44,370 nt of DNA, from the IMG/VR virus record IMGVR_UViG_3300045988_005581. One strand, given 5' to 3'. The DNA is from a virus (taxonomy: Duplodnaviria > Heunggongvirae > Uroviricota > Caudoviricetes). Below the pieces are notes generated by a model that saw nothing but the letters and a program-made list of their open reading frames with translations, was not told the DNA's origin and searched no databases. The translations under genes and the position numbers were made by a program. Of the stretch, positions 5,674 through 44,370 are shown piece after piece. Each line of letters begins with the position of its first letter. Positions within the stretch are counted from its first letter, which is position 1.

Positions 5674-5683
5674 GTTCACCTAT

Positions 5684-5704
5684 AGCCCCGAAAGGGGCTT
5701 TCTT
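5684..5704 (+). terminator. terminator-like hairpin between portal and head-morphogenesis genes
   Basis: AGCCCC-GAAA-GGGGCT then TTCTT; probably partial or stabilising. Confidence 0.4.
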
Positions 5705-5709
5705 ATAGT

Positions 5710-6786
5710 ATGCTATTAACTTTAGCGCCACAGGGTTTATCTATGAGCTTACTTACATCCCTAATCAGCCATCAGATATGGCTGCAACGCACCGCATCCG
5801 GTGAAGTGAAAGACCTCACGCCGTTCATTCAGGAGATAAGGGATGAAATCAAACGGCAGGTGCTGTTATTCGGTGACGACGGTCGCAGCACTGCGCGACT
5901 GAATAAACTGTTACGCGACCTGGAAGAAGCACTAACCGGTATTACGGGTGACTGGCAAACAAAGCTAACAGACGACCTTAAGGAACTGGCGGCGTACGAG
6001 GCTGAGTGGAACGTAAAGACACTGACCGCCAACGTAGACGCGGAATTTGTTACGCCTACCGCTGAGCAGGTATGGGCCGCTGCCGAGTTTCAACCATTAT
6101 CATTGAGCGACAAGCCCGTTGATTTCACCAAGCTGATGTCTGGATGGGGCGAAACGGAAGTAGCACGTCTTGTAACTGGAGTTAAGATGGGCTTTGTGCA
6201 AGGTCAAACCACACGGCAGATTGTTAAGAATGTTGTTGGCGCTGGTGGACTAGCCGACATCTCAGAACGTAACGCGACTACGGTAATCCGCACCGCGCTG
6301 TCCCACGTATCCAACGAGGCCCGTAACGAGACGTACCGCCAGAACGACGACATCATCGAGAAATATGAGTGGGTGTCAACTTTGGACAGCCGTACCAGCA
6401 CGATTTGCAGGGCCAGAGACGGAATGACGTGGGAAATCGGTAAAGGTCCGATGCCACCAGCCCATCCTAATTGCCGAAGTACCACTGCACCGGTAATCAG
6501 TTCAGAGTTCGACTTCCTTGATAAAGGCGCAAAACGTGCGGCTAAGGGTGCGTACGGCGGTACTCAGGTAAGCGCAGACACCACCTATTACGAGTTCCTG
6601 AAACAACAACCAGCATGGTTTCAGGACCAGGCGATCGGTCCTGTTCGTGGTAAGATTTTCCGTAACAGCGGTATATCGCCGGAAGAGTTTCGCGTAAAAT
6701 CTGTAGATGGTTTCGGGAATCCGCTTACGCTTAAGCAGATGGCGGAACTCGATAAACGTGTTGCTGATTATCTGAAAGGGGATTAA
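5710..6786 (+). CDS. head morphogenesis protein (Mu F / SPP1 gp7-like)
   Basis: Contains TLDSRTSTICRARDGMTWE, matching the conserved D-x-R-T...C...DG signature of Mu F-like minor head proteins as I recall it; sits after the portal gene. Start could be 5710 or 5740. Confidence 0.8.
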   Translation: MLLTLAPQGLSMSLLTSLISHQIWLQRTASGEVKDLTPFIQEIRDEIKRQVLLFGDDGRSTARLNKLLRDLEEALTGITGDWQTKLTDDLKELAAYEAEWNVKTLTANVDAEFVTPTAEQVWAAAEFQPLSLSDKPVDFTKLMSGWGETEVARLVTGVKMGFVQGQTTRQIVKNVVGAGGLADISERNATTVIRTALSHVSNEARNETYRQNDDIIEKYEWVSTLDSRTSTICRARDGMTWEIGKGPMPPAHPNCRSTTAPVISSEFDFLDKGAKRAAKGAYGGTQVSADTTYYEFLKQQPAWFQDQAIGPVRGKIFRNSGISPEEFRVKSVDGFGNPLTLKQMAELDKRVADYLKGD

Positions 6787-7247
6787 TGATGGGCTTTTTC
6801 AAAGTAACTGATGTGCCGTCACGTCGCGTAGTCCAGTACGCTCGGGTGTCTGGCTCTGGTGAGAACGTGGTGTTTATTGAGGATGAAAGTGTACTGGGTA
6901 CACCGGTAGACGACATGCCGTTTGCGGATAAAACCGGCATTGCGCTGCCTGCGGCCGGTATGCTCTATGAGATTCCGTATCTGGCGGACGCAGGCGATGT
7001 GTATTTCTCTGTGCAACCAAAAGACGCTGAACTGGCCGACGGCAGCGCGACTATCACTGTCGAAGTTAAAGCAGGTGAAGCGCCGTATGCACTGACCTGG
7101 TACAAAGACGGTAAGGAAGTTGTCAACGCCCCGGAAGAGGCACTTTCCTTGACGGTTAACGCAGTGGGTGAATACTTCGTTAAAGTTACCGATGCTGATG
7201 GTGTAGAGGCTGTCAGTAAAGCTGCGAAGGTCACTAAGCCCGAATGA
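6786..7247 (+). CDS. Ig-like domain protein (possible head decoration)
   Basis: C-terminal segment YALTWYKDGKEVV...GEYFVKVTDADG resembles Ig-like/BIG-type domains; shares the motif with ORF 10559..10909. Confidence 0.6.
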   Translation: MMGFFKVTDVPSRRVVQYARVSGSGENVVFIEDESVLGTPVDDMPFADKTGIALPAAGMLYEIPYLADAGDVYFSVQPKDAELADGSATITVEVKAGEAPYALTWYKDGKEVVNAPEEALSLTVNAVGEYFVKVTDADGVEAVSKAAKVTKPE

Positions 7248-7251
7248 TAAA

Positions 7252-7278
7252 AGGCCCCATTAAGGGGCCTTAGTTTTC
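7252..7278. terminator. bidirectional intrinsic terminator
   Basis: AGGCCCC (7252-7258) / GGGGCCT (7264-7270) with 5-nt loop; T-runs on both strands. Lies between convergent genes. Confidence 0.65.
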
Positions 7279-7480
7279 AACGGAATCTTGTGTTTAAATC
7301 CTGCTCGTGGACGACCCTCAGAACAGTGTCATAATCCCCGTATCTTCCAGGTTCAAATACATCTAATGCCTTGTAAGCAGACATTGCGTCAGGGAAAACC
7401 TGCAGAACCTTTTTAACACGGCACAAGTCACCGTCGAACTCTTCATCGAACTCTTGAACTACTTCGCAAATTGCATACAT
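7277..7480 (-). CDS. hypothetical acidic protein (67 aa), solitary antisense gene
   Basis: ATG at 7480 (minus) preceded by GGGGGTG RBS and a sigma70-like promoter; terminated by the bidirectional terminator. Confidence 0.5.
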   Translation of the reverse strand: MYAICEVVQEFDEEFDGDLCRVKKVLQVFPDAMSAYKALDVFEPGRYGDYDTVLRVVHEQDLNTRFR

Positions 7481-7507
7481 TTTTCACCCCCTGCTTAAGT
7501 TAACTGA

Positions 7508-7536
7508 ATAGTACCCTATTATATTGGGGTGTGCAA
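7508..7536 (-). promoter_or_regulatory. sigma70-like promoter TTGCAC-N17-TACTAT (minus strand) with embedded dyad
   Basis: On the minus strand: TTGCAC (7531-7536), 17 bp, TACTAT (7508-7513); dyad AATAG-N4-CTATT at 7507-7520. About 25 bp upstream of the ATG at 7480. Confidence 0.5.
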
Positions 7537-7602
7537 ACTATTTATTTACTTATTCCAGTTATTCCGCTCAATTGTAAATGTTGGAATAAACTATTCGAAT
7601 AG

Positions 7603-7631
7603 TTGACTTTTCACTAAAAATATGATAAGCT
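7603..7631 (+). promoter_or_regulatory. promoter P_A: TTGACT-N17-TGnTAAGCT (extended -10)
   Basis: TTGACT 7603-7608, 17-bp spacer, TG 7623-7624, TAAGCT 7626-7631. Identical core promoter at 39890..39918. Preceded by the perfect palindrome ACTATTCGAATAGT (7590-7603). Confidence 0.6.
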
Positions 7632-7637
7632 CCACCT

Positions 7638-7838
7638 GAGCTTGTGAAGTATGAACAAGCGACCGCGGCGCGGGCAGGTAACGGAGCGGGACGTAAGTCC
7701 TGAGTGTAGTTACGCTGACGCGTTCGGAAGGGCCATACTCTATTGCTTGTGTAAAAAGTAACAGGTTTACTTAGATTACGCCGTTTCTATGTTTAAATGA
7801 TAAGGACTAGCGCCCTGCTTTAAGGCAGGGCTTTACTT
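7638..7838 (+). ncRNA. candidate short terminated transcript / structured leader (element A)
   Basis: Region between P_A and the terminator at 7812..7838; shares a 43-nt identical 5' arm (7626-7668) and a 23-nt identical 3' arm (7723-7745) with element B at 39913-40032. Not shown to be transcribed. Confidence 0.35.
7812..7838 (+). terminator. intrinsic terminator 18 nt upstream of the spanin start
   Basis: GCCCTGC (7812-7818) / GCAGGGC (7825-7831), loop TTTAAG, then TTTACTT. Confidence 0.6.
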
Positions 7839-7855
7839 ATCGAGAAAGGGGAAAC

Positions 7856-8242
7856 ATGAATCTTAAAGCAACCGTCGTAGCAGGAGCATGTTTCATCATC
7901 CTGGCTTACACACACGGCATTTATCAGTACCGCAGCGGCTGGCACGAAGGCCGCGCTAATCTCGTTTCGCAGCAACAGCAGAAAGCACAGGCCGAGTTAG
8001 CGAAGAAAACACAACGGCAGCAGCAAGATGAATCAAAGGCCGCCGCCGCTGACAACGAAGGCAAGACGAAATCAGAGGTGATCACCCGTGAAGTCGTTAA
8101 GTACATTAAAACTCCTGGTCGCAGCGTGTGCACTTTCGACCCTGAGCGCGTGCAGCTCAAGTCCCGCGCCGTCGCAAACGCCAATTCCATCCCCGGATAC
8201 GACGATGATGCAGCCGCCGTGCAAGCTGGCACCGCCGAGTAG
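7856..8242 (+). CDS. i-spanin (Rz-like inner-membrane spanin)
   Basis: N-terminal TM segment (VVAGACFIILAY), charged Gln/Ala/Lys-rich coiled-coil-like middle region, and an out-of-frame lipoprotein ORF overlapping its 3' half. Confidence 0.7.
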   Translation: MNLKATVVAGACFIILAYTHGIYQYRSGWHEGRANLVSQQQQKAQAELAKKTQRQQQDESKAAAADNEGKTKSEVITREVVKYIKTPGRSVCTFDPERVQLKSRAVANANSIPGYDDDAAAVQAGTAE

Positions 8243-8351
8243 CGACGCTGACGAGGATTTAGCTATCGACGTTCAGAACGCTGAATGCGTACGGCAGCTG
8301 CGGCTGAAAGTGTTCATGTTGCAGGATTACGTGAGGAATATTCTGGAATAG
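8088..8351 (+). CDS. o-spanin (Rz1-like outer-membrane lipoprotein), overlapped architecture
   Basis: GTG start at 8088 with GAGGTGA RBS; signal peptide plus lipobox LSAC; proline-rich mature region; +1-frame overlap with the i-spanin extending beyond its stop. Confidence 0.75.
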   Translation: MKSLSTLKLLVAACALSTLSACSSSPAPSQTPIPSPDTTMMQPPCKLAPPSSDADEDLAIDVQNAECVRQLRLKVFMLQDYVRNILE

Positions 8352-8433
8352 TTGCCTTGCATGTTGGAATAATTTATTCTTGACATGTAAATCCGGGTGG
8401 CCCGGGTTCCAACGTCCAGGGGACATACTGACT

Positions 8434-13424: not shown

Positions 13425-14591
13425 ATGGCTACAACTCCTTTTAAGGGCGCGAATACCGCGCAATTCTATGTGGCGGAAACTACCCCTGGCGTAACACCGA
13501 CTAACCCGGTATGGTCGCCGTTGCGTAACACGGGCGGCGTTCCCGCTGTAACCCGCGATGCACTGACTTCCAACGAACTGGACGGCAGCCGTGAAACTAC
13601 ATCCATCCGAACCGGTAACAAGCAGGTTAGCGGGGAGTATGCCATCGAACTTAGCTCTCGTAGCCAGGATGATTTCCTTGCGGGAGCGATGACTTCTACG
13701 TGGCAAGCTGGGGTAGAGATTACTGGCGCCGAAATTACGGTCGCCCCAGCAGGTAAAACATTCACCCGCGCTGCTGGTAGCTTCATTACTGGCGGTGTAG
13801 AAGTTGGCGACCTTATTGCGTTCACCGACTTAACCGGCGACAACGCAAAACCGTTTATCGTGACCGCGGTTTCCGCTCTGGTAGTTACGGGCGCAGGTAT
13901 TCAGCACACGCTGACAGCAGAGACAGTAACCACTGACGCAAAAACTGGCGACAAGCTGGAAACCGGTAACGCGTGTAAGACGTTCTCCATCCTGACGTGG
14001 TTCAAGGGCCAGTGTGGTAACCCGGACGCGTACATGCTGACCAAAGGTGTGGAAATCTCTGGCTTTACCGTAGAGCAGGCGGTTAACGCCATGGTCACCG
14101 GCAGCTTCCCGTTCATCGGCCTTAGTCAGGAGATTCTTACCGCGCCGCCGTCTGGCTCTGATTTCTCTCAGGTTACGTTCACCGATGAGCCGTTCTCGTC
14201 GGTAGATGTGTCGGTGTTCGATGGCTCCACGCCGTTGCGTTGCGATACTCTCACCATCACCAACGACAACGGAGCTTCCGCGCAGTTCGAACTCGGTAAC
14301 AGTAGCGTGGCGTTCGTCGAACGTGGACGCGCAGCTAACACATTCTCTATCTCTGGCAAGCTGTACGACATGGCGATGATTCAGAAGTTTATCAACGAGC
14401 AGCAGGTAGAGATTAACTCTATTCTGGCAGGGGTAAACGGGGCTATGTCTTTCAGTTTGAAACGTGCAGAGCTTACGGCGGTTACACCTGAGATTGGTGG
14501 GCCTGAGTCAATCACTCAGTCCATTGAAGGCCAGGCTACCGGCAATCGGTACCAGTCGTCTATCGTAATTCAACGTATCACCTACGCATAA
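13425..14591 (+). CDS. major tail (tube) protein
   Basis: ATG 13425 with AAGAGG RBS (tool start 13419 is GTG); about 388 aa, Thr/Gly/Ser-rich; followed by a strong terminator and precedes the chaperone/tape-measure genes. Confidence 0.7.
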   Translation: MATTPFKGANTAQFYVAETTPGVTPTNPVWSPLRNTGGVPAVTRDALTSNELDGSRETTSIRTGNKQVSGEYAIELSSRSQDDFLAGAMTSTWQAGVEITGAEITVAPAGKTFTRAAGSFITGGVEVGDLIAFTDLTGDNAKPFIVTAVSALVVTGAGIQHTLTAETVTTDAKTGDKLETGNACKTFSILTWFKGQCGNPDAYMLTKGVEISGFTVEQAVNAMVTGSFPFIGLSQEILTAPPSGSDFSQVTFTDEPFSSVDVSVFDGSTPLRCDTLTITNDNGASAQFELGNSSVAFVERGRAANTFSISGKLYDMAMIQKFINEQQVEINSILAGVNGAMSFSLKRAELTAVTPEIGGPESITQSIEGQATGNRYQSSIVIQRITYA

Positions 14592-14596
14592 AACTA

Positions 14597-14620
14597 AGGC
14601 CCCTTTCGGGGCCTTTTTCT
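14597..14620. terminator. bidirectional intrinsic terminator
   Basis: AGGCCCC (14597-14603) / GGGGCCT (14608-14614), loop TTTC, T-runs on both strands; separates the tail-shaft operon from the convergent minus-strand cassette. Confidence 0.7.
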
Positions 14621-15174
14621 TACAAACCTAATTTTAAAGCAATGTCTATAACGTTCGATTTAACGTCACCCGGTATGATGTAGGTGTCGTAATCTTTTAC
14701 ACCACTAACATCGTACAGATAGCCACGGCTATCGCAGATGAACGTATAGCCGTCACGATGGAGGCGGACGATTCGCACGTCATGCCCCGCGGCGACGATA
14801 GGGGCAACTTCACTGGCGAATCCACCATCGGACACTACAAAAACTTCGTCGCCGTCAGGCAAGTTTTCAGCAAGATACTTACCGAAATAATCATCGCCGA
14901 ATACCGGTTTAATGAATTGCTCAGAAATGGCAATCATTAACCGGCGGCGGGACAACCCATTAAGAAAACCCTCGGGTTTTTCTTTCCGCGCCCGGTCGTC
15001 GTAGCCGTCGAGAAATTCGTGGTAAGCATCCTGGCCTAACGCTGCCAAAGCAATATTGAACATTGGATTCTTGAAACTGGTAGTTCCTTTCGCAAAGCCC
15101 ATTTCTACCAGCGCCATAGCAAGCGTGTCTTTCCCGCAACCCGCAGGGCCATTAAGAATAATTACCTTAGCCAT
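14620..15174 (-). CDS. deoxynucleoside monophosphate kinase-like P-loop kinase
   Basis: P-loop GPAGCGKDT near the N-terminus; the GKDT variant and overall spacing resemble T4 gp1-type dNMP kinases (recalled, not aligned). 184 aa. Confidence 0.65.
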   Translation of the reverse strand: MAKVIILNGPAGCGKDTLAMALVEMGFAKGTTSFKNPMFNIALAALGQDAYHEFLDGYDDRARKEKPEGFLNGLSRRRLMIAISEQFIKPVFGDDYFGKYLAENLPDGDEVFVVSDGGFASEVAPIVAAGHDVRIVRLHRDGYTFICDSRGYLYDVSGVKDYDTYIIPGDVKSNVIDIALKLGL

Positions 15175-15662
15175 TATTTATCGCTCCCGTGTGGTTTTAA
15201 GTGTGTAGAGTTCCCGTTACAGTCGTATTCGGTAACTGCGTGTGCGGTTATGCCGAGGTCACGGAAATGCTTTATTACCGCTGGAGAGTCGTCGAACGCA
15301 CACAAGATTCTTTCCAGTCCGAAAGCACGCAACACCTCTTCTTTAATTACGATGTCTTTTCTGTTGTCGTGTTTGCTGCGCATGATTAGCGTGTCAAACC
15401 TAACGTTATTCTCTCGTAACCATTCGCGAGTCTCCTCCTCAGCGTCATCACTTCGCCCGGTAAGGATAATTATAGTAAGTCCGGAATGCCACAGTACGCT
15501 ACACAAATGGATATTGTCGTATATCGGAGCGTCATCTTTGCAGGCCATGTTAAATGGCTTCCACGCCCACGTTTCTCCGTAGTTATCTTTTGGTAACAGG
15601 TGTAAGCGATGGGTACCGTCAGCCAATGTCCCGTCTAAATCGAAAATTACAATATCTTTCAT
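15174..15662 (-). CDS. HAD-superfamily phosphatase
   Basis: N-terminal DLDGTL (HAD motif I, DxDxT); 162 aa; TAATG-coupled to the kinase gene. Confidence 0.7.
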   Translation of the reverse strand: MKDIVIFDLDGTLADGTHRLHLLPKDNYGETWAWKPFNMACKDDAPIYDNIHLCSVLWHSGLTIIILTGRSDDAEEETREWLRENNVRFDTLIMRSKHDNRKDIVIKEEVLRAFGLERILCAFDDSPAVIKHFRDLGITAHAVTEYDCNGNSTHLKPHGSDK

Positions 15663-16789
15663 CCCAGCATCTCCGGTGAAATAGTTAAACGTGCGACCTC
15701 GCCATATTCGGCGCTATAAGTAATTACATTTGCACTGCGGCCCGACATCCATCCGCCGCGAGAGGCGTAGGCGTCTTTAGCCGCTAAGGTGCGGTGTTGC
15801 TCAACAATCATGTTACGGCTTTCTACAATCTTCTGGTGGTGCAGATGGCCTACGTGGGCGTAGCTGTAAACACTCTCGCCGAACGCTTTACGGAACTTGG
15901 CAATCATAACCGGTTCGATAGCGTCGAATCGTGCTTTATGCCCGTGATGGAAGAACAGCGTCGTTTTGCCGTGTTGCACCATCTTGTAAACATCCGGCGA
16001 CGTATCGACGAACACGCGCGGCTCATTGTCGTACAGCGTACTGAACATCTCAGCCAACCAAATCATACCCGATTCGTCGTGATTCCCTTGCACGATAAGC
16101 AAGCGAACATTTTTATGCTTAACCAACGCCATATCAACGACACGGCGGACCATACGAATCATGTAACGGACCAGTTTCTGATAGCGCGTGTCAGCGTCAA
16201 GGACATGACCGCTTGCGGGCGTAACGGCATCAAGACTATCGAAGTGCGCTAAGTCGCCAAGAAGATTGATAACCCCAGTACCGGCATCCGGTGCTTTCTG
16301 GAATGCTGCATCGAACCAACGAGAGAACAGGTCTTCCGCAATCTTCATGTCCCAGTCGTCGCCGCTCTCGTCGGCCCAGGCCAGCATACCGAGATGGAAA
16401 TCGGATACAGTGTAAAGATTGAGCAGCTTATCGTCCCGTTTGGCACGAACGGCTTTAACAGGTGCAACGGGCGTAATCTCCGATTTCATGCCTTCGATCA
16501 CGGCTTTCATCAATTCAACCTGACGTTCGGCGTCAGTGTCGGTCTTAACCCATTGCAACTTAGTGTTGCCGAACTCATCCACCAGTGACGACGTTCCTTT
16601 AATCTTATAGCCGTCCGGGACAAGGTGGCTAACATCACGTCCGTGACCTACACCTTTCTTAGCCAGCTTCGCTTTACGGATACGAATTACGCGGTCTGAG
16701 ATGCCGTATTTACGGGCGATGTCTACATTCTTCATTCCGGCGTTCAATTCTTCCTGTAACTGTTCGTCGGTTATTTTCTTCCGGGCCAT
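15659..16789 (-). CDS. calcineurin-like metallophosphoesterase with N-terminal HTH-like domain
   Basis: Motifs SDFH, GDLAHFD, GNHDE, HHGH and GHLHH match metallophosphoesterase signatures; N-terminal NVDIARKYGISDRVIR is HTH-like. RBS GAGGAAG. Confidence 0.75.
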   Translation of the reverse strand: MARKKITDEQLQEELNAGMKNVDIARKYGISDRVIRIRKAKLAKKGVGHGRDVSHLVPDGYKIKGTSSLVDEFGNTKLQWVKTDTDAERQVELMKAVIEGMKSEITPVAPVKAVRAKRDDKLLNLYTVSDFHLGMLAWADESGDDWDMKIAEDLFSRWFDAAFQKAPDAGTGVINLLGDLAHFDSLDAVTPASGHVLDADTRYQKLVRYMIRMVRRVVDMALVKHKNVRLLIVQGNHDESGMIWLAEMFSTLYDNEPRVFVDTSPDVYKMVQHGKTTLFFHHGHKARFDAIEPVMIAKFRKAFGESVYSYAHVGHLHHQKIVESRNMIVEQHRTLAAKDAYASRGGWMSGRSANVITYSAEYGEVARLTISPEMLG

Positions 16790-16827
16790 GCTTACTTCCT
16801 CGTGTTTAGGATTTGTCTTATAGTAGC

Positions 16828-17019
16828 CTACTTCTCTTTCACGTTCGAGTTACAAGCCCAGATTAAAATGAATACCCACGGCAACAGAACCCACCCGAGA
16901 AATAAGTTAGCCATGAATATCGCTAGCTTTGCTTTATGGTTTCGCATATGGGCCACAAAAAACGGGATAAAATAAACGCCTACAACAATAATTAAAAAGA
17001 ACATAGCGATACCGGTCAT
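16828..17019 (-). CDS. superinfection-immunity-like small membrane protein
   Basis: Two TM segments with YFIPFFVAHMRNH...LFLGWVLLPWVFILIWA, resembling the Imm_superinfect family signature from memory. ATG 17019 with AGGAG RBS (tool start 17046 upstream). Confidence 0.6.
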   Translation of the reverse strand: MTGIAMFFLIIVVGVYFIPFFVAHMRNHKAKLAIFMANLFLGWVLLPWVFILIWACNSNVKEK

Positions 17020-17061
17020 AACATAACTCCTGATTTGAGATAACATCGTTGGTGTAAGTGA

Positions 17062-17090
17062 ATAGTACGCTATTATATCAGGGTGTGCAA
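17062..17090 (-). promoter_or_regulatory. sigma70-like promoter TTGCAC-N17-TACTAT (minus strand) with embedded dyad
   Basis: TTGCAC = 17085-17090, TACTAT = 17062-17067 on the minus strand; dyad AATAG-N4-CTATT 17061-17074; near-identical to the element at 7505-7540. Confidence 0.5.
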
Positions 17091-17197
17091 GTAGTATGTT
17101 AGAATAATTTTGCGCCTAGTGTCGCACACGAAAAGCGGGTGGTTCCCGTCTGGCGCATTTCCTTTAACCAGTAACCTCTTAACCAAAGGATTAAAGA

Positions 17198-25171: not shown

Positions 25172-27157
25172 ATGTCAAGCGGATGCGGTGACGTTTTAAG
25201 CCTGGCGGATTTACAGACCGCCAAGAAACATCAGATTTTCGAGGCCGAGGTTATCACTGGCAAATCCTGCGGTGTAGCTACGGGTGCAGACATTGATTAC
25301 GCAACAAATCAGGTTACCGGGCAGACGCAGAAGACGCTTCCTGCCGTGTTGCGCGACGCGGGTTTTTCTCCTGTGTCATGGGATTTCTCCACAGGCGGCA
25401 CGTTAACCGTTAACGACCGGGACAAGGTGGTGTATGACCCTGTTAGCAAAACATGGTACTCGTACGCAGGTACGTTACCAGTTGTTGTCCCTGCATCGTT
25501 TAATCCAGTCGGTAACGCTAACTGGAAGCCGCAGACAGACCCAAATTTGCGTAATGATTTGGCGTCAAGTACCGCCGGTTTAGGGGCTTCACTGGTGTCT
25601 TTTTCCAACGGTAACACCGTTGAAACATTATCTGACGCGGAAGGTGCCAAGAACATAGGCAGTGGCGAAAGGAGTTTGCTTGCACGTAACAATGATATTA
25701 AGCATTCTGGCGACTTTTCTACCCTTCAAGCCGCGGTAGATGCGTCGTTAACTAAAAACGACTTAATTGTTTCTCCGGGTGAGTATACAGAAGCAATCAC
25801 TCTGGGTAGTAAGCAGATAAAAGGTGTAGGTGGTGCTGCAATATTAAAACCATCGGCAAACTATGCAAATACTGTACAGGTTAATTTATCCACCCCGCAC
25901 TGGCAGTTTCGACACAGCGGTGGTTTTGCCGTAGATGGTACAGGTACAACTGGGGCCGTAGGTATTAGTTTTGACCCGTCAGACCAATATTCCGGACGTC
26001 ATAATTTTAGTGATTTATACATCCACAACATCAACAAGGCCATTCAGAAGCCTTCCGGGAACATCGGTAATACATGGAGAAATATTGGGGTATCTACGTG
26101 TGATTGGGGGTATTACGCGATTAGTGGCTCAGAGATGCATTGCGGGGCCGATACCCTCTACAATATCCACTTCGACGGCATCTCCACCTATGCCGTCTAC
26201 CTAAACGGCACTGTCGATAACGGCGGGATAGGCGGATGGTGGCTTAAAGACTCCATTATTGAGGCTTCCGGAGGCGGCGGGATATATTTAAAAAGCAAAT
26301 CAGGTGACTGCCCTACATCTCCATGCGGGGTATCCAATGTATGGACGGACGCGATTGCAACATCATCGGCTGTTCAGGTAGACGGCGTGGCGCAAAAACC
26401 GCGAGTTCTCAAGTTGGTAGACACCGCGATATTCTTTGCTGAGTATTCTTATCTCAACAACATCGAGCTATCCAACTCCAACTTAGTAACTTATGGTTGC
26501 CGTTTTGACAACGCCGATGGTAATCAGGATATTGTAGTGGATGCACAAAGCACCATCGTAGCCCACGACGTGTATTTAAACGGCAGCTCTGGAAAGGACG
26601 TTATTGTAGAGTCTGTCGCGTCGCAATCCGCAACGATAGCCACTACAAACTTGTCTCTACGAGGAAATTTAACAAGGGGACGAGTGTTTAATACGCCGAC
26701 GGGGAATAAGTTAAAAGCTATCACATTTGACTCAGGTAGCTGTAATTTTTCTGGTAGCGGTACCGTTAACGGTTCGACTGTATCTGACGGACTTCACGCC
26801 GCTACATGTACCGAATTTTCATTCCCTGGGTCCGGTTTATATGAAATGGTAGCGTCAAGAACGACACTTACATCCGGTAGATGGTACGTGTGGGGCGTCA
26901 ACTCTCGCCTCCAATCAGGAACAGCAGATGTGAGTATAACGTCAGGTATTACTATGGGTAGCGTTTATACTAAGTCTGGTGAGTGGATTAGCACATTTGG
27001 GGTGGGTAAAGCTTCCGCTAACGGTACTGTAGGTCTGTACGTCTCTACTGGGGGAGGTTCAGGTGCTGTTATCAGATTTAGTGACTTCTTCATCGCTGAG
27101 TTTACGACGCAGGCTCAGGCTTTAGCTTTCGCTAACTCCCGAATGTCGTTGGCTTAA
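25172..27157 (+). CDS. tail fibre / tailspike with beta-helix-like receptor-binding domain
   Basis: 661 aa; RBS AAGAGGA; N-terminal anchor-like region followed by Gly/Asn/Ser/Thr/Val-rich repeats typical of right-handed beta-helix folds; last gene of the tail operon, followed by a terminator. Confidence 0.75.
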   Translation: MSSGCGDVLSLADLQTAKKHQIFEAEVITGKSCGVATGADIDYATNQVTGQTQKTLPAVLRDAGFSPVSWDFSTGGTLTVNDRDKVVYDPVSKTWYSYAGTLPVVVPASFNPVGNANWKPQTDPNLRNDLASSTAGLGASLVSFSNGNTVETLSDAEGAKNIGSGERSLLARNNDIKHSGDFSTLQAAVDASLTKNDLIVSPGEYTEAITLGSKQIKGVGGAAILKPSANYANTVQVNLSTPHWQFRHSGGFAVDGTGTTGAVGISFDPSDQYSGRHNFSDLYIHNINKAIQKPSGNIGNTWRNIGVSTCDWGYYAISGSEMHCGADTLYNIHFDGISTYAVYLNGTVDNGGIGGWWLKDSIIEASGGGGIYLKSKSGDCPTSPCGVSNVWTDAIATSSAVQVDGVAQKPRVLKLVDTAIFFAEYSYLNNIELSNSNLVTYGCRFDNADGNQDIVVDAQSTIVAHDVYLNGSSGKDVIVESVASQSATIATTNLSLRGNLTRGRVFNTPTGNKLKAITFDSGSCNFSGSGTVNGSTVSDGLHAATCTEFSFPGSGLYEMVASRTTLTSGRWYVWGVNSRLQSGTADVSITSGITMGSVYTKSGEWISTFGVGKASANGTVGLYVSTGGGSGAVIRFSDFFIAEFTTQAQALAFANSRMSLA

Positions 27158-27162
27158 AACTA

Positions 27163-27185
27163 AGGCCCCAAACGGGGCCTTTTCT
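27163..27185. terminator. intrinsic terminator closing the tail operon (bidirectional-looking)
   Basis: AGGCCCC (27163-27169) / GGGGCCT (27174-27180), loop AAAC, then TTTTCT. Confidence 0.7.
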
Positions 27186-30093: not shown

Positions 30094-30381
30094 CTAACTA
30101 TAATAGTTTGCTATTAGGTCGTCAACCTGTTTAAACGAACCAACGACAAAAACATTTGCACCGCGTTTACGCATCCGCTCATGCTCACGTAACTGGTGCG
30201 GGTCTGGCTTCGTGTTTTCGTCTTTCTTAACCTCGACAAACCAGATGATACCGCCAGGGAGAATTACCAGCAGGTCGGGAGCGCCGGAACGTCCTTCGTA
30301 GGAGAGCTTGCGAACGAGGCCGCCGAGGGCCTCGAATCGCTCTTTTGCGTATTTCTGTATGCGCCCCTCAGGCGTACTCAT
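30094..30381 (-). CDS. VRR-NUC domain nuclease
   Basis: 95 aa with PDLLVILP...VEVKK, the PD-(D/E)xK-type signature typical of VRR-NUC proteins. Confidence 0.7.
   Translation of the reverse strand: MSTPEGRIQKYAKERFEALGGLVRKLSYEGRSGAPDLLVILPGGIIWFVEVKKDENTKPDPHQLREHERMRKRGANVFVVGSFKQVDDLIANYYS
30097..30125 (-). promoter_or_regulatory. sigma70-like promoter TTGACG-N17-TATAGT (minus strand) with embedded dyad
   Basis: On the minus strand: TTGACG = 30120-30125, TATAGT = 30097-30102; dyad AATAG-N4-CTATT 30102-30115. Confidence 0.5.
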
Positions 30382-32780: not shown

Positions 32781-32803
32781 TAAAAAGGCCCAATGAAGGG
32801 CCT
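32781..32803 (-). terminator. intrinsic terminator (minus strand) between SSB and polymerase genes
   Basis: On the minus strand: AAGGCCC / GGGCCTT stem with 6-nt loop followed by TTTTTA. Confidence 0.45.
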
Positions 32804-32823
32804 TAGTTAAATTGATTCAGATA

Positions 32824-36340: not shown

Positions 36341-36404
36341 TGGGCTTTTCTAAAATAATTAATATGGTACTATTCACATATCAACTGACTAAGGAGTAAT
36401 TGAC

Positions 36405-39889: not shown

Positions 39890-39918
39890 TTGACTTTTAC
39901 TAAGAAATGTGCTAAGCT
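39890..39918 (+). promoter_or_regulatory. promoter P_B: TTGACT-N17-TGnTAAGCT (extended -10)
   Basis: TTGACT 39890-39895, 17-bp spacer, TG 39910-39911, TAAGCT 39913-39918; same hexamers and spacing as P_A at 7603..7631. Confidence 0.6.
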
Positions 39919-39924
39919 CCACCT

Positions 39925-40160
39925 GAGCTTGTGAAGTATGAACAAGCGACCGCGGTGCGGCAGGAAACGGAGCGGTGCGTCAGCACTGAGTGTAGTGTCG
40001 CTGCCTGCATTCGGAAGGGCCATACTCTATTGTAAATCCCGTCTAAATAACCCAAGTCACTAATAATTAAAAGTTTCTATAGTTGCCGTAAGCAAGGTAG
40101 AGAGTACTTCACTCCGCTGGGGTGGGCTAAAGCCCACCCGCTGCGTTGCGTACTCTTTAA
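39925..40160 (+). ncRNA. candidate short terminated transcript / structured leader (element B)
   Basis: Paralogue of element A: identical 43-nt and 23-nt arms flanking a 54-nt core with about 12 substitutions and one indel; followed by GC hairpin GGTGGGC-TAAA-GCCCACC (40121-40138) and a U-rich stretch. Not shown to be transcribed. Confidence 0.35.
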
Positions 40161-40198: not shown

Positions 40199-40227
40199 TC
40201 GCACACCCCAACATAATAGGATACTAT
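40199..40227 (+). promoter_or_regulatory. sigma70-like promoter TCGCAC-N17-TACTAT with embedded dyad
   Basis: TCGCAC 40199-40204, TACTAT 40222-40227; dyad AATAG-N4-CTATT 40215-40228; same element as 7505-7540 in reverse orientation. Confidence 0.5.
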
Positions 40228-44230: not shown

Positions 44231-44260
44231 CCCGGCCCTGACCCAGCCGGGATTTTTTTT
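44231..44260 (+). terminator. strong intrinsic terminator after the lysis cassette
   Basis: CCCGGC (44231-44236) / GCCGGG (44246-44251), 9-nt loop, then eight consecutive T (44253-44260). Confidence 0.75.
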
Positions 44261-44370
44261 ATCTATTTTCTGTGATGACTAGTTGACTATTATCCTCGAC
44301 CCTATTATATTTACTTCATCGACAACGAGAACGGAGTAGAGAGAAATGGGCAACGTATCGACGATAGAAA
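44252..44370. repeat. Terminal duplication (copy 2), identical to 1..119
   Basis: Exact repeat of the window start, including the promoter at 32..60 and the first 25 nt of the first ORF. Confidence 0.9.

Follow-up and report, generated by a model that had tools for sequence, protein, structure and literature searches.

An antisense gene between the head decoration and spanin genes

We analyzed a 44,370-nucleotide (nt) stretch of phage DNA of the class Caudoviricetes (IMG/VR record IMGVR_UViG_3300045988_005581), referred to here as the window, and focused on a short minus-strand gene that encodes an acidic protein of 67 amino acids (aa). The gene lies between two rightward core genes, one for a Hoc-like head decoration protein and the other for an Rz-like spanin, and the features of the locus are listed in Table 1. 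The window begins and ends with the same 119 bases, a direct repeat at 1-119 and 44252-44370. It therefore holds a complete genome, 44,251 bp long and either circularly closed or terminally redundant, together with an overlap from assembly. Over positions 6700-8400, it shares 99.3% identity with Escherichia phage vB_EcoS-phiEc3, and its identity to many further genomes of Kagunavirus (Guernseyvirinae) is 92-96%. Judged from its genome, the source phage is a virulent Kagunavirus. No integrase gene is annotated in phage Bas75, one of the carriers of the 67-aa gene, although one small Bas75 product is labelled 'excisionase and transcriptional regulator'.

Table 1. Features of the antisense cassette and its surroundings, with positions in the window
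Feature	Position	Strand	Remarks
Hoc-like head decoration protein, left flanking core gene	6786..7247	+	phrog_3945, E = 8.5e-86; Bas75 annotation
Accessory slot, from the Hoc-like stop codon to the conserved TTATTCCAGTTATTCC	7248..7559	both	46-874 bp across 48 loci
Two-way intrinsic terminator hairpin, AAGGCCCC-loop-GGGGCCTT (predicted)	7251..7271	both	8-bp G+C-rich stem
67-aa acidic protein, coding sequence (cargo of the cassette)	7277..7480, including stop	-	ATG start, TGA stop
Shine-Dalgarno sequence GGGGGTG	7491..7485	-	4 nt upstream of ATG; read from the sequence
Dyad AATAG-N4-CTATT, overlapping the -10 element	7507..7520	both	putative operator of a core phage regulator
Sigma70-like cassette promoter, class A (predicted)	7536..7508	-	-35 TTGCAC at 7536..7531, 17-nt spacer, -10 TACTAT at 7513..7508
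Rightward promoter TTGACT-N17 (TGn)-TAAGCT (predicted)	7603..7631	+	divergent from the cassette promoter
Structured RNA candidate (leader or small RNA)	7632..7750	+	about 119 nt; right boundary of the slot, outside the cassette
Terminator-like hairpin followed by TTTACTTATC	7812..7831	+	just upstream of the spanin gene
Rz-like i-spanin, right flanking core gene	7856..8242	+	phrog_2536, E = 1.1e-56
o-spanin (Rz1), embedded in and overlapping the i-spanin gene	up to 8351	+	phrog_5672, E = 4.4e-30

A preliminary description of the window had proposed a minus-strand open reading frame (ORF) for an acidic 67-aa protein at this position, and both the ORF list and the composition of the product (7.9 kDa, 14 acidic D/E versus 8 basic K/R residues, pI 4.5, net charge -6.4) confirm it. 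ORF length is no proof by itself, since the window holds many chance ORFs of 60-90 aa, and the coding status of the ORF was therefore judged from its conservation. Compared with the copy in phage SHAK7858, which is 85% identical at the protein level, there are 14 synonymous and 13 non-synonymous differences, giving a dN/dS of 0.19-0.23. Synonymous sites are saturated in comparison with homologues that keep 44-65% protein identity, among them those of Jerseyvirus VSt10, Jedunavirus Geezett, Cornellvirus Shemara and Klebsiella phage vB_Kpn2-P2 at 44-61%. By these comparisons, the ORF is a real protein-coding gene under purifying selection; it is annotated as a hypothetical protein in several relatives. 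At 44.1%, its G+C content differs from that of the Hoc-like gene (52.4%), the Rz gene (55.6%) and the whole genome (50.6%).

The gene is closed by a terminator hairpin that carries a T-tract on each side, at 7241-7250 for the minus strand and 7274-7277 for the plus strand, with tails of TTTTATCATT and AGTTTT, respectively. The 46-nt context of the hairpin folds at -19.8 and -19.4 kcal/mol on the two strands (z = -4.6 and -4.3), in agreement with the earlier proposal of a bidirectional terminator, and it is predicted to serve both the Hoc-like gene on the plus strand and the 67-aa gene on the minus strand. The genome holds four near-identical copies of this two-way terminator, AAAACTAAGGCCCC-loop-GGGGCCTTTT, at 7249-7277, 14590-14618, 27156-27183 and 32781-32808, all of them at points of convergent transcription. 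The picture of a lone antisense unit between the Hoc-like gene and the spanins, complete with its own predicted promoter and a shared two-way terminator, was upheld.

A conserved frame with exchangeable cargo

To compare the locus among relatives, we collected 48 loci in which the Hoc-like gene is accompanied by the conserved non-coding stretch 7481-7855. The non-coding stretch occurs in 182 records, almost all at 90% identity or more, whereas the 67-aa protein is encoded in only 33 phage records. The slot between the Hoc-like gene and the non-coding stretch was empty, with a length of 46 bp, in 11 of the 48 loci, including those of the type phage K1G and Salmonella phage FSL SP-101; the empty slots have another terminator and no leftward promoter. 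The slot was occupied in the other 37 loci, reaching 874 bp, and its minus-strand cargos there fall into at least 13 unrelated sets. All occupied slots share a left edge formed by the two-way terminator, AAAAGGCCCC-loop-GGGGCCTTAGTTTT, and a right edge formed by the dyad-bearing promoter, TGAATAGTACCCTATTATRTTGGKGTSTGCAAACTATTT. The 5' untranslated region and ribosome-binding site type, CCTGTTTAAGTTAAC, is also common to several unrelated cargos.

The 67-aa protein is the cargo in seven loci. The others include a 173-aa protein with weak clamp-like matches (nine loci), an N6_N4 DNA methyltransferase (three loci, including that of Salmonella phage S102; Pfam E = 1.7e-29), a 114-aa lipobox protein together with a 33-aa membrane peptide (three loci), an EndoVII/HNH-like protein of 179 aa (three loci) and, at various loci, several other small proteins without an assigned function. 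The 173-aa cargo (L009, L030-L052) is the commonest alternative and carries the GenBank label 'DNA polymerase III sliding clamp'; its matches are limited to part of the central clamp domain (Pfam E = 0.008) and to a PHROG labelled RusA-like resolvase. The orphan methyltransferase is the only slot cargo with a recognisable candidate counter-defence role. As read from these loci, the unit is a promoter-cargo-terminator cassette in which the frame is conserved and the cargo is exchanged, probably by recombination within the conserved frame.

A second slot of this kind lies between the portal and MuF genes. It is empty in the window (5674-5709), and in other phages (L023, L025, L028, L032, L040 and others) it has the same promoter frame, is likewise antisense and is likewise hypervariable. 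The two slots share cargos, namely the 173-aa protein, the methyltransferase and a three-gene set, and the second slot of VSt10 holds a homologue 61% identical to the 67-aa protein. One of the second-slot loci spans 1.4 kb and has three further ORFs.

The concept of the moron comes from the lambdoid phages (Juhala/Hendrix), with the morons of HK97 and HK022 as examples. The 67-aa gene had been called a moron in the preliminary description, and the name holds in the strict comparative sense: K1G, FSL SP-101 and nine further loci have neither the gene nor the leftward promoter, and other relatives hold unrelated genes at the same junction. Absence from relatives, a predicted promoter and terminator of its own and a deviant G+C content were all found at the sequence level.

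A dyad-bearing promoter shared with non-structural genes

The cassette promoter was found at the place where it had been predicted (7508..7536), dyad included, and the evidence for it is of the sequence kind. The 31-nt promoter sequence has four copies in the genome, at 7506(-), 17060(-), 40199(+) and 41334(+), where none would be expected, and we refer to it as class A. It precedes every cargo type in the 37 occupied slots. The copy at 7506(-) faces the 67-aa gene, the copy at 17060(-) faces a second antisense island that contains an exonuclease gene, and the copies at 40199(+) and 41334(+) run into small rightward genes. In all four, the dyad overlaps the -10 element. A second type of promoter, class B, is near consensus (TTGACA-17-TATAGT), reads leftward and has the dyad in its spacer; it occurs at 30102, 33511 and 36317, in the leftward replication module.

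The dyad has eight exact copies in the genome, and 12 copies when up to one mismatch is allowed, against 1.1 expected. Those embedded in promoters are exact at 7507, 17061, 30102, 33511, 36317, 40215 and 41350 and have one mismatch at 36361. The dyad would thus mark eight promoters of non-structural genes, which implies that these genes are expressed early and are co-regulated, and it suggests one regulator for all non-structural promoters of these phages. We infer that the 67-aa gene belongs to this early, non-structural regulon. Expression of the gene independently of the late genes, as put forward in the preliminary description, is plausible because the promoter family with the dyad otherwise drives replication genes and small early-type genes.

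The dyad is also kept in phages that do not have the 67-aa gene, and its regulator must therefore be a core gene. The same motif was found seven times by PHIRE in phage fBC-Eco01 and was called a phage-RNA-polymerase promoter (PMC9825357). That assignment was set aside because no RNA polymerase gene is annotated in these phage genomes, and a shared operator for a core phage regulator, placed on host-type promoters, fits the motif better.

A rare, phage-only protein family

A profile search of 1.84 billion cluster representatives with the 67-aa protein gave 22 matches. Three of these are long proteins with five separate matching stretches each, and the one that was inspected (P0028) is an internal tandem repeat; the remaining matches range from 51 to 130 aa, and most have 63-75 aa. 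Several other phage groups have homologues, with identities of 33-65%. By these searches, the family is rare and found only in phages. Among 24 family members, down to 33% identity, residues D16, V22, A35, F66 and R67 are invariant and C5, V7, F11, L26, Q27, F29, R55 and V57 are nearly so, and Phe-Arg is the C-terminal end in all 24 aligned members. A Pfam scan of the same 24 members gave no match. PHROG 27256, which has no function annotation, gave a weak match (residues 2-67 to positions 4-65 of a 65-column profile, E = 0.001, 20.1 bits); although the match is borderline, this PHROG probably represents distant members of the family.

The AlphaFold2 model of the protein is confident (pLDDT 89.4, pTM 0.70) and places strands at 2-12 and 17-29 as a hairpin, helices at 32-42 and 44-47 and a strand at 53-58. 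The protein is single-domain in this model, with the order beta-hairpin, helix, strand; by its sequence it is acidic and soluble, and no signal peptide or membrane segment was seen. Foldseek against BFVD returned uncharacterised phage proteins only.

The gene was found in none of 5,426 complete E. coli genomes and in none of 72,556 plasmids, and a prophage or plasmid origin was rejected on these searches; the sole host-labelled database entry of the protein is on a 43-kb, phage-sized contig. From the records at hand, the gene belongs to virulent phages. Distant members of the family were seen in four kinds of setting. One lies among a series of small early genes, four genes downstream of a KilR homologue; others lie in replication regions, in antisense islands within structural modules, or behind the lysis genes as the first of a series of small genes. 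No conserved neighbour was found across the contexts examined, and the protein would therefore act alone. A two-gene module was considered for Geezett and vB_Kpn2-P2, in which a gene of about 170 aa follows the homologue, and was rejected on finding that the two neighbours are unrelated to each other.

A possible role as an inhibitor of a host protein

Taken together, we think it probable, with moderate confidence, that the locus is a one-gene accessory cassette, or moron, of a virulent Kagunavirus, and that its product is an early-expressed, dispensable inhibitor of a host protein. The fixed frame consists of a conserved, predicted leftward sigma70-type promoter and a conserved two-way terminator between the Hoc-like gene and the conserved RNA leader, and recombination in this frame would swap the cargo, the same cargos being present in the portal/MuF frame. 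Host RNA polymerase would transcribe the 67-aa gene early and independently of the surrounding structural genes, and a core phage regulator would later shut off the dyad-bearing promoter. The 67-aa protein would then bind a host protein stoichiometrically and neutralise it. The target would be conserved in Enterobacteriaceae and would belong either to host defence or to the functions that the phage takes over, and the 67-aa protein would be dispensable for the basic lytic cycle.

Stoichiometric inhibition is the most likely mechanism, at about even chances in our estimate, because the protein is small, soluble and acidic, is placed behind an early-type promoter, appears dispensable and horizontally mobile, and occurs only in phages of Enterobacteriaceae. 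The host-interaction or anti-defence role suggested in the preliminary description is a best guess drawn from the type of locus and the alternative cargos. More tentatively, the protein might represent a new family of phage inhibitors that act on a host defence or other host factor of Enterobacteriaceae not linked to them before, through a fold that has no solved relative, and it would be carried in a plug-and-play cassette with an operator-controlled early promoter and a two-way terminator at two sites in the structural module of the Guernseyvirinae; we regard this wider proposal as possible and rather doubtful.

Several observations weigh against the overall reading of the cassette and its product. 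The slot cargos are heterogeneous, with an EndoVII/HNH-like nuclease, the clamp-like 173-aa protein and many proteins without a known function, and location in the slot alone therefore does not imply anti-defence. The homology and structure searches gave neither a function nor a solved fold: scans of the 67-aa protein against Pfam, NCBIfam and PADLOC had no match, a sequence-profile search of the Protein Data Bank (PDB) gave chance matches only (E >= 0.1), and Foldseek against the PDB gave a best E of 0.83, with TM <= 0.35 among the 50 matches shown. The cassette promoter is only moderate, with 7-8 of 12 consensus positions, and was missed by a strict consensus scan. The one Kagunavirus time-course transcriptome found (PMC12645636) has no data on the 67-aa gene and its timing is coarse; the named close relatives of the phage used there, ST20 and XY1, are not among the 33 records with the protein. 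In addition, phages Bas70-76, all of which encode the protein at 97-98.5% identity, have no unusual resistance in a published panel (PMC11990801).

In the same panel, Bas70-76 were described as highly sensitive to restriction-modification and as variable in their sensitivity to Old (PMC11990801). A broad anti-restriction role of the 67-aa protein is unlikely because its carriers remain restriction-sensitive.

Alternative roles of the 67-aa protein

The alternative that survives best is a role in phage-phage competition, through superinfection exclusion or interference with co-infecting phages or satellites, and we consider it unlikely. An early-type promoter and the patchy distribution of an accessory gene would suit such a role, and the slot elsewhere holds a lipobox lipoprotein with a small membrane peptide, a typical exclusion-type cargo. 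However, known exclusion proteins of the lipoprotein or membrane kind usually act at the envelope, whereas the 67-aa protein is acidic, soluble by sequence and free of a signal peptide or membrane segment, and the PHROG and Foldseek searches found no homology to exclusion proteins.

It is improbable that the protein works as an Ocr/ArdA-type DNA mimic or anti-restriction factor. Its small size and pI of 4.5 resemble this type, and in Salmonella phage S102 and others the slot is taken by a DNA methyltransferase, which is a classical cargo against restriction. The restriction sensitivity of Bas70-76 (PMC11990801) argues against it. So do a net charge of only -6.4 and a mixed beta/alpha fold for which Foldseek gave no match to a solved protein (best E as above).

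To a similarly small degree, the protein could be a host shut-off factor that binds RNA polymerase. The model for such a factor is T7 Gp2, an acidic RNA polymerase inhibitor of 64 aa with a beta-beta-alpha-beta order. The 67-aa protein is likewise small and acidic, and its AlphaFold2 model has the same order of elements as Gp2. A relationship in sequence was rejected by an hhalign profile-sequence comparison, in which the probability was 0.3% over 4 columns, and no Gp2 chain was among the 50 PDB matches shown (of 112 with E <= 10). Unlike Gp2, the 67-aa gene has an accessory and not a core distribution, and a takeover factor of such importance is not expected to be missing from most close relatives.

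Still less probable is a phage-internal regulatory protein, such as an autoregulator that binds the AATAG-N4-CTATT dyad, although the gene does lie directly behind a dyad-bearing promoter. The dyad promoter frame is kept in relatives with unrelated cargo and no 67-aa gene, and fBC-Eco01 carries another cargo and yet has the motif genome-wide (PMC9825357). Moreover, the protein is acidic and has no DNA-binding motif or Pfam match, and helix-turn-helix regulators are annotated elsewhere in the genome, small ones among them being homologues of Bas75_0050 and Bas75_0054.

That the ORF is spurious or a decaying remnant without function, as a window full of chance ORFs might suggest, is scarcely credible in view of the purifying selection, the confident compact model, the strong ribosome-binding site and the fact that homologues from unrelated phage groups, even at 33% identity, keep the length, the termini and the core residues.

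A structured RNA candidate and a predicted rightward promoter beside the cassette

The right boundary of the slot is formed by a structured RNA candidate behind a predicted rightward promoter, the latter conserved in nearly all of the 48 loci. A perfect 16-bp palindrome, AACTATTCGAATAGTT (7589-7604), abuts the -35 element of this promoter and has its centre near -42 relative to the predicted start, where class II activator sites lie. The palindrome contains the half-sites of the AATAG-N4-CTATT dyad in reverse order and is kept in nearly all of the 48 loci.

The RNA element is 95-97% conserved across Kagunavirus and Jerseyvirus. A second copy is present at 39919-40037 (+), directly behind the same promoter type (39890-39918) and without the palindrome; Bas75 has a single copy. 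For the element, 17 distinct sequences support a small hairpin and a long hairpin, with 31 pairs in all and 97.9% of the cells paired. We counted 16 doubly changed, compensatory cells, against 3.3 in shuffles and 0-2 in slid controls. A covariance model of the element scored 143.9 and 129.6 bits on the two copies, and Rfam gave no match at gathering or E-value thresholds. A relation to the HK022 put RNA was rejected, as the covariance model had no match in phage HK022. Several relatives carry an annotation for a 36-aa hypothetical protein at 7651..7761 (+); this ORF is unlikely to be a gene because its paralogue differs by -1/+1 frame-shifting indels, with the nucleotides conserved.

With a promoter followed by a structured leader, a terminator and then late genes, the layout is reminiscent of lambda PR'-tR' or HK022 put, which we mention as an idea only. 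From its sequence and position, the element may be a late-operon leader, an antitermination element or a small RNA.

We also noted a second antisense island at 14620-17046 (-), within the tail gene block, with ORFs of 184, 162, 376 (exonuclease) and 72 aa. Its predicted promoter is the class A copy at 17060-17090, and a copy of the two-way terminator (14590-14618) closes it. An Rfam match to int-alpA (RF02996) at 17109-17173 (+), with 36.6 bits against a gathering score of 35.8, lies between the leftward promoter of this island and the gene for the tail assembly chaperone, the same relative position as that of the structured RNA beside the first cassette.

Relation to known systems and significance

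As judged from its organisation, the cassette fits known kinds of phage elements, the moron and the accessory region. Like the lambdoid morons, it adds a gene between two late-region core genes, has its own predicted promoter and terminator, is low in G+C and is missing in close relatives, and the tail region of HK022 has annotated antisense morons. Unlike the lambdoid morons, it is carried by a virulent phage, which leaves no lysogenic state for expression of the gene. It also resembles a cassette more than the classical one-off moron does, since a conserved frame serves many cargos and is used at two sites.

Phage accessory regions that hold counter-defence genes have been described by Silas et al. 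(bioRxiv 10.1101/2023.04.06.535777). The slot resembles them as a hotspot between core genes with variable, horizontally exchanged small genes, including a DNA methyltransferase, and differs in that its cargos are at most candidates for counter-defence. The 67-aa protein is absent from the supplementary files of that accessory-gene screen.

The 67-aa gene is one more uncharacterised phage accessory protein, of a kind that specialists would expect. The protein is nevertheless experimentally tractable, being short, confidently modelled, phage-only and present in seven BASEL phages. The slot that holds it is a clean natural cassette site: its promoter and terminator are fixed, it accommodates at least 13 cargos, and it exists at two positions. 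Its cargos are a ready candidate list of host-interaction genes in a phage group used for therapy and in the BASEL collection. The slot is also a natural insertion site for payloads that would spare the late operons. If the proposed role of the cassette is true, the Guernseyvirinae could swap counter-measures between two fixed sites in their structural gene module.

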